From an uncultured Candidatus Saccharibacteria bacterium (GTDB lineage: Bacteria; Patescibacteriota; Minisyncoccia; UBA6257; 1-14-0-10-44-23): a DNA stretch of 64,000 bases. Shown piece by piece: positions 13,540 to 17,255 of the stretch; position 1 is the first letter of the stretch; every line of letters begins with the position of its first letter. A program made the position numbers and the translations under genes. The notes under the pieces were generated by a model, which did no database searches, was not told where the DNA came from, and was given only the letters and a program-made list of their open reading frames with translations. The stretch lies in NCBI GenBank assembly GCA_964460325.1, contig CAYWPI010000001.1:11105-75104 (forward strand), given 5' to 3'.

Positions 13540-14058
13540 TTACACTCCCTGCGCCTTTGAGCCACGGGCGCGGCGAATCAGTTCGTCGCGCAGCTGTTCT
13601 GCCTCTGCGCGGGACAAAGCCGGAAGTCTTCCCTCGGCGTGCATACCCGATGTTCCTCGGCGGGTTACAAGGGCGCTTGCGCCGGCTGTTTGAATATGCA
13701 AATCGGAGAGCCCAAGAATGCGAGCCAAGATGCCACGATAGATATCCACATTCTGGATGCGCTCATAAGGAATAGTTACGTAACGCTTATAGATAACGCC
13801 TGATTCTTTCCGAAAGCCATTCTCAGTAAGTTCATAGAGAAAGTAACCATACGAAAGCTTCGCCCAGATCCAGCACAGCGCCAGAACGATAATCAGCATG
13901 GGCCAAAACAGATTGAGTGGAATGCTATAGCCTTGCTCCAAGGCCACGACCGCGACGTCGGCAAGTATCCAAAAACGGACAACCACTAAAAATAGTGTCC
14001 AGCGAAATGCCAGTCTTATGAAAAACAGCCAGAGCGCTTTCGGGTCAAGATGCTTCAT
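13540..14058 (-). CDS. Bacterial PH-domain membrane protein (YdbS/YdbT-like)
   Basis: Two transmembrane helices followed by a bPH_2-like domain. Start chosen at MKHLDPK. Confidence 0.55.
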   Translation of the reverse strand: MKHLDPKALWLFFIRLAFRWTLFLVVVRFWILADVAVVALEQGYSIPLNLFWPMLIIVLALCWIWAKLSYGYFLYELTENGFRKESGVIYKRYVTIPYERIQNVDIYRGILARILGLSDLHIQTAGASALVTRRGTSGMHAEGRLPALSRAEAEQLRDELIRRARGSKAQGV

Positions 14059-14082
14059 GATCTGTGATGTTATGTTTTTATT

Positions 14083-14162
14083 GTGCGGGATATTGAATTT
14101 AGTTCGAACCGTGTTCGCGGCGCCGCCCGCCACCGGCGCACGCGAAGGGCGAACCGGTCTTT
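14083..14162. repeat. IR-A left arm: 80-bp perfect inverted repeat
   Basis: Exact reverse complement of 15258-15337, compared by eye. Confidence 0.85.
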
Positions 14163-14265
14163 AACAATTTCAAGTTGTTTTTTGGCGGCAAATTCTTGAT
14201 TTGATTGTATCCTAATTTGCTGAAAAGAAAAGGAACCCTTAACGATCGCGTACTGCGATGGGTTC

Positions 14266-14670
14266 CTACGGGGGCGTTGCAGCCCCAGCTGAAGACGACA
14301 GAGATGGATTCAGTCGTCGGGTTCGGACGAGAGCGAGCAGCGTCAGTAGCTCTTGCGGAGCAACGTATCCACCAAGTTGCTCCACCATCAGTGCGGCCTT
14401 CTCGATGTCTTCCTTGCTGAACTGGCTGGGCGCTTCGGGTCGCAACTGCTTCGCGATGCCATGAAGAGCGCGAGCGTCTTCTTCTGTCTTCCCGCAAGCC
14501 CTTGCAATGGCCAGCAAGGTCTTCAGACGCGGCACGAGTGTGATCGTCTCCTCGATGCGCCGGATCTGCGAGATCGCGATCTTCGCCTTTTCGGCGAGTT
14601 GCTCGCGACTTAGACCTGCTTCCTTGCGCCAAGCCCGAACGGTCGCGCCGACACCTTGAACTTCGTTCAT
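14266..14670 (-). CDS. XRE-family HTH transcriptional regulator
   Basis: HTH signature LSREQLAEKAKIAISQIRRIE. High GC. Start overlaps the upstream ORF stop (ATGA). Confidence 0.6.
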   Translation of the reverse strand: MNEVQGVGATVRAWRKEAGLSREQLAEKAKIAISQIRRIEETITLVPRLKTLLAIARACGKTEEDARALHGIAKQLRPEAPSQFSKEDIEKAALMVEQLGGYVAPQELLTLLALVRTRRLNPSLSSSAGAATPP

Positions 14671-14850
14671 CCGCGTTTCTCCTGAATGAGCTCGTGAATG
14701 GCGCGGATGGACATCACGATCCAGAATCCGCCGACGCCACCGGCAATCGAAGGAACGATCTTGATTCCGATCGCGTACCCGATCGCAGCTACGGTCAGCA
14801 AGACATACGCACCGATCGTGAAGAGCATGGCTGCTTTAGCGGTTTCCATC
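14667..14850 (-). CDS. Small membrane protein (~60 aa)
   Basis: METAKAAMLFTIGAYVLLTVAAIGYAIG... SD AAGGAGGAG. Translationally coupled by TGATG/ATGA overlaps on both sides. Confidence 0.4.
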
Positions 14851-15093
14851 ACTCCTCCTTCTTCTCGTTCGGACGAACGATGATCATGCTCCCCCCGAAG
14901 CCCAGCTTCCATCCTAGGAGCCAAGCGATGATGAGGATCCCGATCGAGATCCCGATGCCCGGCAGGATCGCAGGACGCCCGACGGCCCACAATGGGACGC
15001 CGAAAGCTCCTGCCCACATCAGCACGAAGAAGATGCGGTAGACGACCGCCTCACGCGGACCGAGCTCGTGCACGGTCAAGTTGGCAGGTCCCA
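14850..15093 (-). CDS. Small membrane protein (~81 aa)
   Basis: MGPANLTVHELG... with two transmembrane segments. First gene of a three-gene minus-strand operon. Confidence 0.35.
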
Positions 15094-15257
15094 TGTGTAC
15101 TCCAAGTGCCACAATTGGCCTGCTGAATATGCCACATCTCAAAATAAAAAGCAAATATAAAACAAAAACAGCCCCTTTGGGCCGTTTCTCAAAAATGTTC
15201 TTTTCTTCTTTCCCTCTGATTCGAGCCGATGGATTTCCGGGCTCTTTGGCGGTTTTG

Positions 15258-15337
15258 AAAGACCGGTTCGCCCTTCGCGTGCGCCGGTGGCGGGCGGCGC
15301 CGCGAACACGGTTCGAACTAAATTCAATATCCCGCAC
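15258..15337. repeat. IR-A right arm
   Basis: Reverse complement of 14083-14162. Confidence 0.85.
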
Positions 15338-15406
15338 AAGTCAGAAGATGTCAACGCCTCGCGCCGACTTTGTCGGCGCTCGGCGAGCTGTTGGTACGGC
15401 GGTTTC
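15334..15406. repeat. IR-B left arm: 73-bp perfect inverted repeat, abutting IR-A
   Basis: Exact reverse complement of 16845-16917. Shares GCAC with the end of IR-A. Confidence 0.85.
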
Positions 15407-15449
15407 TCTTAGGGAAAGAAGAAAAGAACATTTTTGAGTTAAATCTCAT

Positions 15450-17255
15450 ATGAAATACATACTGTACGCAAGAAAATCAACAGAAGAAGACGACAGACAA
15501 GTCTTGAGTATTCAGGCGCAACTCGCAGAGTTGCGAGAATTTGCCGCCAAAGAACACCTTGAAATTGTTGCTTCCTTTCAGGAAGCCAAAACCGCCAAAG
15601 AGCCCGGGCGAATTAAATTCGCAGAAATGGTGGCAATGATTGAATCCAAGAAAGCAGACGGAATCATAAGCTGGCACCCCGATCGTCTTGCTCGCAATTC
15701 CGTAGATGGAGGCAAGATTATTCATTTGATCGATCGCGGCTTGATCAAGTCATTAAAATTTCCCACCTTCTGGTTTGAGGCCACCCCACAAGGTGTGTTC
15801 ATGCTCAATATCGCCTTTGGACAGAGTAAATATTTTGTAGATAATTTGCGAGAGAATGTGAAGCGGGGACTACGACAGAAGATCAGAAACGGCATCTGGC
15901 CTGGCTGGGCTCCGGTGGGGTATATTAATAATCCACGAACGCGAGATATTGATGTTGATAGTGAAAAAGCTCCAAAAGTGAAGAAGTTGTTTGAGATGTA
16001 CGCCACCGGAGCATACACACTAAGTTCTCTCGCAAATTGGTGCGTGGAAAATAATCTCAAGGGCAACAGGGAGAAGAAAATATCAATCAGCAATCTGCAG
16101 AGTATTCTACAAAATATTTTCTACGTTGGCCTCATGAGATATCGTGGGGAAATTTTCGAAGGCAAGCACGAGCCACTCATCTCAAAGAAACTTTTTGATG
16201 AAGTCCAAAAAGCGATGAAAAACCGAGGAAAACAGAAACACGTTCGTAAACATCACTTTGCTTTTCTTGGCCTACTCAAATGCGCTTCGTGCGGTTGCTC
16301 CATCACCGGCGAACGTCAGAAGGGTCACAACTATTATCGCTGCACCAAAAAGAAAGGCCCATGCCAAGAAAAGCATTATCTTCGAGAAGAAGATTTATTA
16401 GCTCAAATCAAAAGCATTCTTCAAAAAGTTTCTTTGGGAAGCCACGACACTGAAAGAGTTTTGGCGGCGCTCGCAGGCGAGGAGGCGGAGGCAAAAGAAT
16501 ACTCTCAAAATGAAGTAGGGTTATTAAAATCAAAACTGACAGAAATAGAAGCCAAACTCTCCCGCCTCCTCGACCTGTATCTTGCGAGCGAAATATCCCT
16601 TAGCAAAGAGGAGTTCGCCGCCAAAAAAGAAAGCCTTGTCTTGCAAAAGGCAGAATTAGCTCAGAAAATTAATGATATTGAGCAAAAAGGAGTGTCGTGG
16701 CTCGAACCGGCTCGTGAGTTCGTTCTATCCTTGAATCAAGCCGCGAAACTGCTTGAGAATGGGAACCCAGAATCATTGCCACCATTTCTCAAAGCCATCG
16801 GCTCGAACCACACCCTTCAAAACCGACAAGTCGGTTTTGAGCTGAAACCGCCGTACCAACAGCTCGCCGAGCGCCGACAAAGTCGGCGCGAGGCGTTGAC
16901 ATCTTCTGACTTGTGCCCGGGACAGGAGTCGAACCTGCATGCCTTGCGGCGCTACCACCTCAAGGTAGTGCGTCTGCCATTTCGCCACCCGGGCAAACTT
17001 GCATTAACAATCTCGACGCTTGCAATACAAGGTCGGGACTCCGACCCGGTCATAGCGTCGGATCTGACAACTAATAACTTACAACAAGCAACAAGAACTT
17101 TCAAATCAAAACCGCCCTTGCGGGCGGCAATGAGTTATTTTTCTTTTGTGTCAGCCTCTTTTGCTTCAGCCGGCTTGGTGGCTGCCTTTTTGTCGTTACC
17201 ACGCTCAGCAGACATCTTACGACGAATCGCCTTCCTGCTAATATCTCGGATGTAA
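15450..17255 (+). CDS. Large serine recombinase; the ORF has no in-frame stop and reads through IR-B and tRNA-Leu, so it may be a pseudogene or carry a non-native 3' end
   Basis: YARKST catalytic-serine motif at the N-terminus, resolvase domain, recombinase domain, zinc ribbon CASCGCS...YYRC and a coiled coil. The native end is probably near ~16845. Confidence 0.75.
   Translation: MKYILYARKSTEEDDRQVLSIQAQLAELREFAAKEHLEIVASFQEAKTAKEPGRIKFAEMVAMIESKKADGIISWHPDRLARNSVDGGKIIHLIDRGLIKSLKFPTFWFEATPQGVFMLNIAFGQSKYFVDNLRENVKRGLRQKIRNGIWPGWAPVGYINNPRTRDIDVDSEKAPKVKKLFEMYATGAYTLSSLANWCVENNLKGNREKKISISNLQSILQNIFYVGLMRYRGEIFEGKHEPLISKKLFDEVQKAMKNRGKQKHVRKHHFAFLGLLKCASCGCSITGERQKGHNYYRCTKKKGPCQEKHYLREEDLLAQIKSILQKVSLGSHDTERVLAALAGEEAEAKEYSQNEVGLLKSKLTEIEAKLSRLLDLYLASEISLSKEEFAAKKESLVLQKAELAQKINDIEQKGVSWLEPAREFVLSLNQAAKLLENGNPESLPPFLKAIGSNHTLQNRQVGFELKPPYQQLAERRQSRREALTSSDLCPGQESNLHALRRYHLKVVRLPFRHPGKLALTISTLAIQGRDSDPVIASDLTTNNLQQATRTFKSKPPLRAAMSYFSFVSASFASAGLVAAFLSLPRSADILRRIAFLLISRM
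16845..16917. repeat. IR-B right arm; its last 4 nt overlap the 3' end of tRNA-Leu
   Basis: Reverse complement of 15334-15406. Confidence 0.85.
16914..16994 (-). tRNA. tRNA-Leu(GAG)
   Basis: Manual fold: acceptor GCCCGGG, anticodon loop TTGAGGT, long variable arm, T-loop GGTTCGACTCC. Confidence 0.8.
17100..17128 (-). terminator. rplS terminator
   Basis: Hairpin CCGCCCTTGCGGGCGG followed by a T-run on the minus strand. Confidence 0.55.

Follow-up and report, generated by a model that had tools for sequence, protein, structure and literature searches.

The segment at 14081-16916 of the window, by which we mean the whole stretch of 64,000 nucleotides analysed here from an uncultured Candidatus Saccharibacteria bacterium, is probably a compact integrative mobile element of Patescibacteria that is driven by a large serine recombinase (LSR), targets a tRNA 3' end and carries exchangeable cargo. 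Its primary identity is that of an integrative mobile element, not of a fixed phase-variation locus or a shufflon. Judging from the genome sequences compared, elements of this kind, about 2.5-4 kb in size, are widespread in Patescibacteria (CPR).

Inverted repeats and layout of the element

The element extends from the outer end of one inverted-repeat pair, IR-A, to the outer end of another, IR-B, and consists of two modules. The arms of IR-A enclose the cargo module, and those of IR-B enclose the recombinase module.

14081-14167, no strand: IR-A left arm (A), left end of the element (repeat search, self-BLAST)
15253-15339, no strand: IR-A right arm (A') (repeat search, self-BLAST)
15334-15406, no strand: IR-B left arm (Y'), which repeats the final 73 nt of the element, where the recombinase coding region ends, in inverted orientation
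16844-16916, no strand: IR-B right arm (Y), right end of the element, with a GC-rich hairpin, a -35-like TTGACA and the terminal core TTGTGC

The initial annotation of this DNA had described two long inverted-repeat pairs, and both were found by repeat search and self-BLAST. The 87-nt arms of IR-A are 98% complementary and contain a perfect core of 82 nt (14081-14162 and 15258-15339); that is, the pair is present but longer than the 80 bp first given (14083-14162 and 15258-15337). IR-B had been correctly described as a perfect 73-nt repeat (complementarity 100%) with its left arm in place, but the right arm lies at 16844-16916 and not at 16845-16917. This right arm is the final part of the recombinase coding region. 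The inner arms of the two pairs do overlap, by 6 nt (GCACAA, 15334-15339) instead of the 4 nt (GCAC) counted before. Perfect inverted repeats of 73-82 nt within 7 kb cannot have arisen by chance.

The first 6 nt of A (14081-14086) and the last 6 nt of Y are both TTGTGC. A core of 4-6 nt, (T)GTGC, is present at the left junction, at the right junction and, inverted, at the internal junction of A' and Y', which repeats the joined element ends in inverted, attP-like form. The cores are inverted at the borders of each module and direct for the whole unit. A and Y' resemble each other in layout, each having the core, about 25 nt and then a TTCGCC...GGCGA hairpin. The outer part of A contains the tRNA T-arm-like motif TAGTTCGAAC, and homology among related elements starts with this arm (consensus TgGTGCagtATtcTtgAatTAGTcCGAAC).

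The recombinase

15450-16916, plus strand: element-encoded part of the large serine recombinase (ORF, domain and homology searches)

The protein possesses Resolvase, Recombinase and Zn_ribbon_recom domains. At a weak but significant level it resembles two structures, A118 integrase and SPbeta YokA, as well as the models of CcrB and XisF, and it scores far under all named-family cut-offs (for CcrB, 96 bits vs 900). The IS607 model matched the catalytic domain only, with 28 bits against a cut-off of 110. The driver of the element is a distinct LSR family. The identity to the best homologue was 77-78% for the recombinase and 62% for the neighbouring host gene.

The recombinase ORF has no stop codon inside the element and reads through the tRNA to 17255. 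Of 62 relatives, 56 likewise have an ORF that reaches the element end without a stop, and the conserved part of the protein reaches to about residue 466-489.

The tRNA target and the putative attachment sites

16913-16994, minus strand: tRNA-Leu(GAG), the integration target, attB side (Rfam, 51 bits)

The overlap of the right arm of IR-B with this tRNA had been noticed before, and it amounts to 4 nt, not 3. The tRNA is intact and its 3' end abuts the element, so that the 3' ends of the recombinase gene and the tRNA lie against each other on opposite strands. The core corresponds, as reverse complement, to about positions 71-74 of the tRNA. [quoted passage not shown] In the remaining loci the core is followed by fragments of a tRNA 3' end or by sequence that resembles one. 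The recombinase tree is independent of tRNA type. These findings agree with the suggestion in the initial annotation that this might be a tRNA-targeting element.

In the left flanks GCAC alone is conserved. The left half of attB shows no conservation, unlike what is usual for serine integrases. In a numbering that begins with the first base of the shared hexamer TGGTGC, CGAAC occupies positions 20-24 in the tRNA and positions 25-29 in A. In serine integrases the motif for the zinc-ribbon domain is shifted by 5 bp between attB and attP (PMC3783163), and the position of CGAAC, 5 bp further out in A than in the tRNA, matches this shift.

The cargo module

14197-15187, minus strand: cargo segment, GC about 0.59 (ORFs, domain search)
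14266-14670, minus strand: XRE/HTH protein, 134 aa (HTH/XRE domain match)
14667-14837, minus strand: hydrophobic ORF, 56 aa (ORF list)
14849-15094, minus strand: hydrophobic ORF, 81 aa (ORF list)
15164-15189, belonging to the cargo segment: terminator-like hairpin, upstream of the cargo genes
15326-15354, minus strand: candidate sigma-70-like promoter over the A'/Y' junction, facing the cargo genes (consensus match)

The domain search gave no family match for the 56-aa and 81-aa ORFs, and the protein search gave no homologue of the XRE protein. The cargo has a GC content of 0.57-0.63 as against 0.41-0.48 for the recombinase gene, which bears out the earlier view of a composite module; it consists of foreign cargo and a recombinase. 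Related elements are homologous over A plus W' and from U' to Y (blocks W' and U' are listed below), with the exception of the cargo. Between W' and U' the cargo is unrelated among otherwise similar elements and differs at almost every locus; HIT, HD, NUDIX, radical SAM, transporter, methyltransferase, DHODH and other genes were found. An element usually carries one to three genes in this fixed frame. Some loci carry two cassettes, and in one of them, L060, the cassette border consists of V', a long palindrome and W'.

The candidate promoter, called by consensus match only, has its -35 (TTGACA) in Y' and its -10 (GATATT) in A', separated by a 17-nt spacer. The same arrangement occurs in L011 and, with exactly this spacing, in 37 of 58 loci.

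Recurrence among relatives

We compared 80 related loci from species-representative genomes, all of them CPR MAGs produced with several assemblers. About 50 independent assemblies of Patescibacteria show the whole repeat layout. IR-B is at least 60 nt long in 50 of 55 loci. Arm identity is 0.98-0.99 within a locus vs about 0.70 between loci.

These data bear on whether the repeats are an assembly fold-back or a chimera. Repeat lengths of 73-87 nt lie within the k-mer range of assemblers, the GC content of the cargo is unlike that of the surrounding sequence, and many contigs of related MAGs end near the element. However, this multi-part layout with locus-specific arms is not an artefact because it recurs in about 50 independent assemblies (SPAdes, MEGAHIT and IDBA-type), and the coding region carries a matching synonymous constraint. 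We regard the fold-back explanation as refuted, and the chance that an artefact is involved as negligible.

Elements L005 and L009 are 93% identical over 2673 nt including the cargo, exactly from outer A to outer Y, and their neighbours are tRNA-Arg and tRNA-Gly, respectively. The gene to their left is orthologous (87%), so that this pair could reflect a junction-specific rearrangement instead of a fresh insertion. A locus with an empty site, for comparison, was looked for and not found. Several MAGs contain 2-3 copies at different tRNAs, with a nucleotide identity of 73-84%, like random pairs.

It might also be supposed that two independent elements are neighbours here, namely a recombinase element of IS type, bounded by Y'/Y as its 100-nt terminal inverted repeats, and a MITE-like non-autonomous cargo element (A/A') mobilised in trans. 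The sole cassette-less copy (L077, a pseudogene), the cargo modules accompanied only by recombinase remnants (L087 and L091) and the similar layout of A and Y' are in accord with this idea. But the IR-A pair is present in 35 of 44 loci with the modules adjacent, in the same relative order and with a common core, and the modules move or diverge together. Moreover, sequential insertions of one core polarity would not produce the inverted internal core, and the cargo promoter requires both arms. We therefore consider two separate elements very unlikely.

Orientation of the modules

The initial annotation had named a pair of invertible segments as one possibility. The site layout, with cores inverted at the borders of each module, fits this idea, and the recombinase segment is flipped between its arms in two metagenome contigs, L089 and L086. 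The order in L089 is tRNA(+)-[Y' U rec X Y]-[A V X U cargo W A']-host; L086 has the same arrangement with an intact ORF of 541 aa. In the species-representative genomes, however, the 3' end of the recombinase lies against the tRNA in 51 loci, and the flipped arrangement is absent from all 73 of the 3' flanks that could be read. For the cargo module, the only example of flipping is L069, a degenerate locus.

If the locus were a resident phase-variation switch, two recombinase-driven invertons would toggle the cargo and the recombinase, and the adjacency of the tRNA would be incidental. The inverted cores, the location of the recombinase gene inside its own invertible segment, as in hin, and the occurrence of both orientations of this segment in nature speak for such a switch; the junction promoter would then read the cargo in sense or antisense according to its orientation. 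Against it, copies occur at 20 different tRNAs with a recombinase tree unrelated to tRNA type, homology stops exactly at the element ends, the recombinase is conserved above host genes, the species-representative genomes have a single orientation and the cargo is hypervariable. A resident switch is thus improbable to us, and in place of a shufflon-like or inverton switch as the primary identity we prefer an integrative mobile element with exchangeable cargo.

Small inverted blocks and nested repeats

14163-14196, no strand: block W', reverse complement of 15536-15569 (94% match), left border of the exchangeable cargo
15188-15257, no strand: blocks U', X' and V', right cargo border, three inverted copies side by side whose counterparts in the recombinase locus are not adjacent
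15411-15438, plus strand: block U, A/T-rich leader 5' of the recombinase start, whose copy U' precedes the cargo
15536-15607, plus strand: W (15536-15569), palindrome hp and V (15587-15607), inside the coding region
15623-15641, plus strand: internal repeat S, partner of 16771-16789
16180-16202, plus strand: internal repeat R, partner of 16417-16439
16417-16439, plus strand: internal repeat R', partner of 16180-16202
16771-16810, plus strand: S' (16771-16789) and block X (16791-16810), the latter containing GGCTCGAACC

The initial annotation mentioned neither the inverted copies around the cargo, nor the two repeat pairs inside the gene, nor the missing stop codon. U' (15188-15215) is the reverse complement of 15411-15438 by repeat search and self-BLAST, V' (15237-15257) is that of 15587-15607, and X' (15217-15236) matches the reverse complement of 16791-16810 approximately. 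The order U'-X'-V' is kept family-wide, and the degenerate copies L069, L070 and L090 have breakpoints at block borders. Synonymous variation is strongly reduced in W and also reduced in the S'/X stretch (16771-16810). The 17-nt palindrome hp between W and V (15570-15586, GCTTCCTTTCAGGAAGC) forms a hairpin that covaries across loci: the 6-bp stem is perfect in 51 of 58, with compensatory changes at pair 3 (TA or CG) and pair 6 (CG, GC or TA).

Such features raise the question of whether the inverted repeats serve a single-stranded DNA stage, as in an integron-like or transformation-adapted element. Two long stem-loops, A:A' and Y':Y, would form on each strand, with nested stems in the gene. 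The A'/Y' junction would be a splint pairing both ends to give a double-stranded attP and a promoter from one strand, and the cargo module would derive from the recombinase module through copying in which synthesis skipped the hairpin bases. Nested long-range complementarity indeed spans the recombinase module and coincides with reduced synonymous variation, and the W/V hairpin covaries. G-T and A-C mismatches are equal in number (34/35, 15/16 and 180/180), which indicates that the pairing is strand-symmetric, unlike that of RNA. Viewed as circles, the modules are collinear, the cargo module being the recombinase module minus each stem-loop at its base. The cassette border of L060 points the same way, and U/U' and similar short blocks co-vary within loci, although ordinary gene conversion would need longer stretches. 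On the other hand, we know of no serine recombinase that uses folded single strands, the element encodes no replication or transfer function, recent neutral mutations also fit the equal mismatch counts, and double compensatory changes are few in the internal helices. We consider a single-stranded stage unlikely.

A role at the RNA level was considered as well. The recombinase mRNA would form a panhandle between its 5' leader (Y') and its 3' end (Y) with nested stems, a fold that would control translation, stability or processing of the stopless transcript, and pairing of A with A' would close the cargo mRNA. With RNAalifold a consistent fold with nested stems is obtained between -144 and +1461, the paired segments have reduced synonymous variation, the ORF is stopless in the 56 of 62 loci, and the predicted cargo transcript would begin in A and finish in A'. 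A G-U bias is absent, however, and no promoter was found 5' of Y' on the recombinase strand. Furthermore, the inverted copies U', X', V' and W' on the other strand are not accounted for by RNA structure, nor is the precise logic of the junctions, and flipping would abolish the leader fold only if the promoter lay outside. We think there is little likelihood that the repeats act through RNA.

Comparison with known systems

Among known systems, the serine-integrase elements (A118/Bxb1/phiC31, SPbeta SprA, SCCmec CcrAB and XisF) have in common with ours the Resolvase, Recombinase and zinc-ribbon architecture, one defined insertion point, a short shared core and a recognition motif whose distance from the centre is 5 bp greater in the element than in the target. 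Unlike them, the present element targets the 3' end of many tRNAs with the other attB half unconserved, is only about 3 kb long, and has a stopless recombinase ORF running to its very end. In addition, both of its ends are duplicated and inverted in mid-element, 70-100-nt perfect inverted repeats surround each module, and no directionality factor was identified. A serine-integrase-type element of this architecture was not found in the searched literature, in line with one of the two possibilities offered in the initial annotation, and its mechanism is resolved only in part.

The Hin/Gin/Cin invertons likewise have a serine recombinase gene between inverted repeats and occur in both orientations (as L086 and L089 vs the standard arrangement), and inversion would alter which promoter reads the gene. 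They employ small serine invertases that have a helix-turn-helix at the C terminus and act on 26-bp sites together with a Fis enhancer, whereas here a large serine recombinase and 100-nt arms are found in a mobile, tRNA-targeting, cargo-bearing unit with one dominant orientation.

The earlier judgement that the architecture is not that of IS607, Tn4451 or typical tRNA islands was upheld. Serine-transposase elements (IS607; Tn4451/Tn5397 with TnpX/TndX) are also discrete elements moved by a serine recombinase, with relaxed target choice and joined ends that form a promoter. As in our element, an identical stretch of 2-3 nt borders both ends, GA in those elements and GTG here. IS607 and Tn4451 are not known to have long terminal inverted repeats, tRNA 3'-end targeting or an internal copy of the joined ends.

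Integrons resemble the element in that a conserved recombinase adjoins exchangeable, mostly single-gene, unrelated cassettes and a platform promoter, and the cassette border in L060, a long imperfect palindrome with conserved short blocks, recalls attC. They differ in that the enzyme here is a serine and not a tyrosine recombinase, the cassettes are usually one and rarely two, the whole platform is mobile and tRNA-targeted, and the cassette borders are copies of recombinase-gene pieces; we obtained no evidence here for folded single-strand substrates.

Tycheposons are small cargo elements next to tRNA genes in streamlined genomes, with variable, often metabolic cargo, and as in our loci partial tRNAs and degenerate copies pile up beside the tRNA. 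Of 501 tycheposons, 474 have a tyrosine recombinase, each specific to one of seven tRNAs, and many contain replication modules (bioRxiv 10.1101/2020.12.28.424599). In contrast, the 20 tRNA types found here are all targets of a single family of serine recombinases, a replication module is absent, and the inverted-repeat architecture is not part of tycheposons as described.

Proposed mechanism

For the integrative element that we prefer, the recombinase would join attP, that is, the joined ends Y-core-A, with attB at the tRNA 3' end. The T-arm of the tRNA may be read as the zinc-ribbon-domain motif, the same motif lying 5 bp further out in IR-A. The cargo may be driven by the promoter split over the internal junction and would be swapped as a segment bounded by U...W. 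An integrative element needs no internal attP copy, no 100-nt arms and no copies of coding pieces, so that the most striking features are unaccounted for by this model.

The IR-B arms may be kept identical through recombination between them. An occasional flip at IR-B would then move the recombinase gene from the convergent position with the tRNA gene, as in this window, to a position downstream of the tRNA gene. If the recombinase gene flips in this way, the inversion would act as a switch of its expression.

Parts of the element and its recombinase

We consider it likely that the region at 14081-16916 is an element distributed throughout the CPR, targeted to tRNA 3' ends by a serine recombinase; its cargo would be exchangeable, its recombinase module invertible and the junction between its modules attP-like. 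A repeat search and self-BLAST confirmed the positions of the two long inverted-repeat pairs, IR-A and IR-B, that the initial annotation had reported. The parts are as follows.

Features of the element and the adjacent tRNA gene (window positions)
14081-14167 / 15253-15339: IR-A, left arm A and right arm A'; 87 nt, 98% complementary, perfect core 82 nt
14163-14196: W', inverted copy of recombinase-locus sequence, cargo flank
15188-15215: U', inverted copy of recombinase-locus sequence, cargo flank
15217-15236: X', inverted copy of recombinase-locus sequence, cargo flank
15237-15257: V', inverted copy of recombinase-locus sequence, cargo flank
15334-15406 / 16844-16916: IR-B, left arm Y' and right arm Y; 73 nt, 100% complementary
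16913-16994, minus strand: tRNA-Leu(GAG), overlapping the right arm of IR-B by 4 nt

The inner arms A' and Y' overlap in GCACAA. As had been described, IR-A encloses three genes (an XRE/HTH gene and two small hydrophobic ORFs), the IR-B arms enclose the gene of a large serine recombinase, and cargo and recombinase differ in GC content. The GC values are 0.57-0.63 for the cargo and 0.41-0.48 for the recombinase gene, and the domains of the recombinase are Resolvase, Recombinase and Zn_ribbon_recom. Three features were absent from that description, namely the four small inverted blocks, two further inverted-repeat pairs inside the recombinase gene (S/S' and R/R', detected by self-BLAST), and a recombinase ORF without its own stop codon. 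This ORF (15450-17255, product 601 aa) crosses Y, the antisense strand of tRNA-Leu and then the antisense strand of rplS (the L19 gene, 17135-17527, minus strand). Among known RNA families, the tRNA alone was matched in 13900-17100, and no second copy of any part of the element was found elsewhere in the 64-kb window. The window (1-64000) contains 10 tRNA genes, of which tRNA-Leu(GAG) is the only one occupied. On the other side, the start codon of the host gene for a bPH_2 membrane protein (13540-14058, minus strand) is separated from the element by just 22 nt, and the native upstream region of this gene was therefore displaced by the insertion.

The enzyme has a length of 466 aa or more, includes recombinase and zinc-ribbon domains, and belongs to the large serine recombinases (Pfam Resolvase 4.8e-21, Recombinase 3.2e-16, Zn_ribbon_recom 8.1e-09). 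Its motif YARKSTEEDDRQ, which includes Ser10, was invariant in 21 sequences, and A118 integrase and SPbeta YokA were its PDB matches. The NCBIfam scores for the named subfamilies lay far below the cut-offs: 96 against 900 bits for CcrB, 92 against 375 for XisF and 70 against 700 for CcrA. The conserved protein sequence terminates in FPxWC, and beyond it the frame translates the tRNA in antisense (GCACCA gives TGGTGC in reverse complement). The position of the stop codon in relatives depends on the neighbouring tRNA (median nt 1512), and 56 of 62 loci have no stop before the end of the element.

The window recombinase is a member of a very large family. The best 120 database proteins listed were 71-78% identical to it and 457-656 aa long, and those among them with a named source were labelled as Patescibacteria or CPR lineages. 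At least 453 matches to the family were confirmed in species-representative genomes, and exact-protein look-ups returned no contig on record with an identical protein. A phage origin was rejected, since 2.9 million viral contigs gave two partial matches, both interrupted after residue 117. In these two IMG/VR contigs (L081, 1-460; L082, 1-400), a more distant homologue is cut after that residue by unrelated sequence, and an X-like motif, CGTCGGCTCGAACC, lies just 45 nt upstream of its start codon; this arrangement may be simpler or ancestral.

Recurrence of the architecture and exchange of cargo

We compared 80 loci from species-representative genomes, all of them CPR MAGs produced with various assemblers. 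The entire architecture recurs in this set. Relative to the recombinase start codon, the arms of IR-B lie at -143 to -43 and 1361 to 1461, one arm of IR-A lies at -227 to -140 and the other about 1 kb further upstream, and the same four small blocks are present in the same order. IR-B measures at least 60 nt in 50 of 55 loci, and the IR-A pair is found in 35 of 44. The search for homologues with long flanking inverted repeats, which the initial annotation had proposed, thus recovered the whole layout, and the assembly artefact that it had allowed for does not account for the repeats, because the layout is the same in CPR MAGs from different assemblers. The repeats noted at the outset are genuine and carry biological meaning.

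In related MAGs, the contig frequently breaks off 50-450 nt ahead of the recombinase start codon or within the first ~150 coding bases, around block W (for example L018, L020, L029, L034, L054-L059, L062, L064 and L068), which fits repeats or mixed arrangements in the sampled populations. One locus, L047, has a ~270-nt insertion in the leader (-330 to -30 from the recombinase start). It is bounded by direct repeats of 26 nt, AACCCCGCAGCTCTGCTGCGGTTGGG, and resembles an independent small mobile or repeat element.

Related elements have A with W', and U' through Y, in common, whereas the cargo is not shared. The segment between W' and U' measures 0.5-2 kb with a GC content of 0.30-0.55, and almost no protein families are common between loci; examples are HIT, HD, NUDIX and radical SAM proteins, a sodium:solute symporter, endonuclease/phosphatase, methyltransferase, NAD(P)HX dehydratase, dihydroorotate dehydrogenase and a Na/Ca exchanger. 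The cargo genes lie on the strand opposite to the recombinase. Often a terminator and a promoter-like sequence of their own precede them, as would be the case if pieces of chromosome had been captured. In the window, the XRE/HTH protein (14266-14670, minus strand) matched only itself in a word-indexed search of 5.8 billion proteins; NCBIfam gave generic helix-turn-helix matches below cut-off and PADLOC weak matches of the same generic kind. The two small hydrophobic ORFs matched no family. One relative, L060, has two cassettes, between which lie V', a ~105-nt palindrome made of the inner halves of A' and A, and then W'; a palindromic cassette border was found at this locus only.

tRNA targeting, boundaries and mobility

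A tRNA gene on the opposite strand starts at +1380 to +1480 in 51 of 62 loci, and 20 isoacceptor types are represented; the remaining loci have tRNA 3' fragments or tRNA-end-like sequence at that position. In the literature searched, we found no description of the window element. Both results support the earlier suggestion of a previously undescribed tRNA-targeting element. The recombinase tree showed no association with tRNA type. Copies within the same MAG, located at different tRNAs, diverge as much as random pairs, and recent transposition within a genome was rejected on this ground.

Related copies cease to be homologous at the outer limits of IR-A and IR-B, as a discrete unit should. One pair, L005 and L009, is 93% identical over 2673 nt; the match comprises the whole of A through Y, with the cargo, and ends exactly there, and one copy adjoins tRNA-Arg(tcg) and the other tRNA-Gly(ccc); this pair carries the caveat that the left gene (L005, 93-746; L009, 68-751) encodes an orthologous HD-domain protein with 87% nucleotide identity. 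The two differ in the 55-70 nt that immediately precede the element and in the tRNA on its far side, and both contigs end just past the HD-domain gene; these flanks suggest rearrangement at the element borders or an older cassette. In other related pairs, homology is likewise lost at the tRNA boundary. The best homologue of the neighbouring host gene is 62% identical and that of the recombinase 77-78%, and this better conservation of the recombinase fits horizontal spread. No empty site was obtained for the window (the closest bPH_2 homologues are ~62% identical and their contigs are not syntenic), nor did an all-against-all flank search reveal an unoccupied orthologous site among the 80 loci.

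The core (T)GTGC is present at both outer junctions and, inverted, at the internal junction. The unit is bordered by direct GTG, and its termini are CAG...CTG. In the left flanks GCAC alone is conserved, indicating that the crossover falls in the last acceptor-stem bases or the discriminator and that the following bases are supplied by the element; these complete CCA in most loci and read CAA in the window. On the tRNA side, the T-arm sequence GGAnTCGAAC places CGAAC at 20-24 from the first base of the shared TGGTGC hexamer, whereas in IR-A (TAGTCCGAAC) it lies at 25-29. This 5-nt offset concerns one half-site only, the other attB half being unconserved. In serine integrases, the motif of the zinc-ribbon domain, placed about 5 bp further out, likewise distinguishes attP from attB half-sites (positions 16-24 and 11-19, respectively; PMC3783163).

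The internal junction, A'-core-Y', represents in reverse complement the two element ends as they would be joined in a circle (Y-core-A), and the circle junction and the internal junction are indistinguishable by sequence. A sigma-70-like promoter facing the cargo is predicted across this junction by consensus match only, in the window, in L011 and in 37 of 58 loci, with the -35 in Y', the -10 in A' and a spacer of exactly 17 nt. Division of the promoter between Y' and A' would be one reason why the inner arms must abut. We recognised no candidate directionality factor in the 3-kb unit.

Orientation of the recombinase module and degenerate copies

The arms are 98-99% identical within a locus and ~70% identical between loci, which points to continuing exchange between them. 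Each module is bordered by inverted cores, the layout of an invertible segment. The proposal that these are invertible segments was borne out in part. In the species-representative genomes we saw a single orientation, with the 3' end of the recombinase against the tRNA in 51 loci, and A followed Y (the flipped arrangement) in none of 73 readable 3' flanks. A metagenome scan for the order recombinase 3' end, Y, core, A gave at least six contigs. L089 reads tRNA(+) - Y' U rec X Y - A V X U cargo W A' - host, and L086 has the same order with an intact ORF of 541 aa. In both, the inner recombinase segment alone is inverted relative to the tRNA and the cargo, so that relatives hold this segment in both orientations. 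In the flipped state the recombinase gene follows the tRNA gene and shares its strand, and in the window state it is convergent on the tRNA gene; judged from these orientations, the change may act as an expression switch. In L086 (63-1688), the recombinase frame stays open across A, V, X and U, with its stop where U ends, and block X is translated in the frame that it has at its native position.

Degenerate copies break at block borders. L069 has the order A V X U cargo W hp V...Y tRNA (hp, the 17-nt palindrome at 15570-15586 in the window) and lacks the catalytic N-terminus; a deletion between the two W copies that are direct in a flipped element, and then integration of the circle so formed, would give this product. 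In L070, Y' is joined directly to hp-V. L090 (4290-6900, reverse-complemented) is rearranged at the internal S/S' repeat (15623-15641 / 16771-16789 in the window), with the order tRNA Y' X' S g2' S' X Y A...; its IR-B arms appear extended inward over X and S, and recombinase residues 57-466 remain. The internal junction is lost in L035 and L071, and L077 is a cassette-less pseudogene copy.

Self-complementarity and the small blocks

Across 58 genes, synonymous variation is sharply reduced at W and X-Y and in six other places. At the same places RNAalifold found nested complementary segments (175-188 with 1320-1333, 393-406 with 577-590, 734-749 with 972-987, 988-1000 with 1238-1250, and others), in which Watson-Crick pairing is 85-96%, compared to 10-68% with the partner slid by 1-3 columns. 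The 17-nt palindrome between W and V retains a perfect 6-bp stem in 51 of the 58 genes by way of compensatory changes, which alter the protein. In every set, G-T mismatches equalled A-C mismatches. The signal is thus strand-symmetric and not RNA-like, and RNA-specific pairing was rejected.

When the two modules are read as circles, U-g1-W-(hp)-V-[S...S']-X-(Y.Y') is collinear with U-cargo-W-(A'.A)-V-X. That is, the cargo module corresponds to the recombinase module without its stem-loops, cut at the base, and with the first 90 coding bases swapped for cargo. The self-complementarity and the collinear modules may reflect either a folded single-strand stage or a set of secondary recombination sites. 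As to the latter, the sizes of U, X, V and W (21-29 nt) fit attachment half-sites and X contains TCGAAC, but the crossover geometry of W-hp-V mismatches a simple exchange, which speaks against the half-site reading of these blocks. What the long arms, the small inverted blocks and the intragenic repeats (R/R' being at 16180-16202 / 16417-16439) do is explained only in part.

Comparison with known systems

The element resembles serine-integrase elements in domain architecture, the short shared core and the 5-bp motif shift, and differs from them in scoring below all named family cut-offs and in its many tRNA targets, internal joined-ends copy and long arms. As in Hin-type invertons, the recombinase gene lies within a segment of its own that is probably invertible; those systems, however, use a small invertase (~190 aa, C-terminal helix-turn-helix), ~26-bp sites and an enhancer, whereas the arms here are 73-100 nt and the enzyme measures 466 aa or more. 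With integrons it shares exchangeable single-gene cassettes and, as predicted here, a promoter in the platform, but integrons employ the tyrosine recombinase IntI with attI/attC and a platform not itself targeted to tRNA, and the enzyme here is a serine recombinase. The judgement that the architecture is not of the IS607/Tn4451 type was sound: the IS607 model scored 28 bits against a cut-off of 110 and matched the catalytic domain alone (IS607-type TnpA combines an N-terminal MerR-like helix-turn-helix with that domain), and long inverted repeats, present here, are not known from the ends of TnpX-type elements. Tycheposons also carry tRNA-linked cargo; a tyrosine recombinase occurs in 474 of 501, each specific for one tRNA, and many contain replication modules (bioRxiv 10.1101/2020.12.28.424599). 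The window element has a serine recombinase instead, and no replication gene lies in 14081-16916. Apart from its place in the recombinase superfamily, it does not have the full set of defining features of any one of the systems compared.

Possible mechanism and significance

We speculate, and regard it as rather improbable in its entirety, that one large serine recombinase carries out three nested reactions on the 3-kb unit jointly with a folded single-stranded DNA stage. The whole unit would integrate at the 3' end of almost any tRNA gene; the recombinase gene would invert between the 100-nt arms as an on/off switch coupled to tRNA transcription; and the stretch bordered by the U and W blocks would capture and exchange single-gene cassettes. 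The folded stage, for which uptake by natural transformation in CPR would be the likeliest occasion, might be the reason for the extensive strand-symmetric pairing within the element, and the internal joined-ends copy could then act as a splint that brings the two termini together as a double-stranded site of attachment.

Current models of serine recombination do not cover several questions of mechanism that arise here, concerning the internal inverted joined-ends copy, the recombinase gene within its own putatively invertible segment, the coding-sequence copies on either side of the cargo and the nested repeats, at which synonymous variation is constrained. A compact serine integrase that naturally targets the conserved T-arm and acceptor end of many tRNAs would also be of interest for genome engineering.

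CPR/Patescibacteria have tiny genomes. To our knowledge, few plasmids, conjugative systems or integrons are recognised in them, and the gain of accessory genes there is therefore largely unexplained. The element family is a candidate vehicle for such gain, being abundant, conserved above host genes and provided with an accessory gene that varies almost per copy. If the three-reaction reading is true, the family would be the equivalent of the integron among serine recombinases and one of the main paths by which CPR genomes acquire genes.
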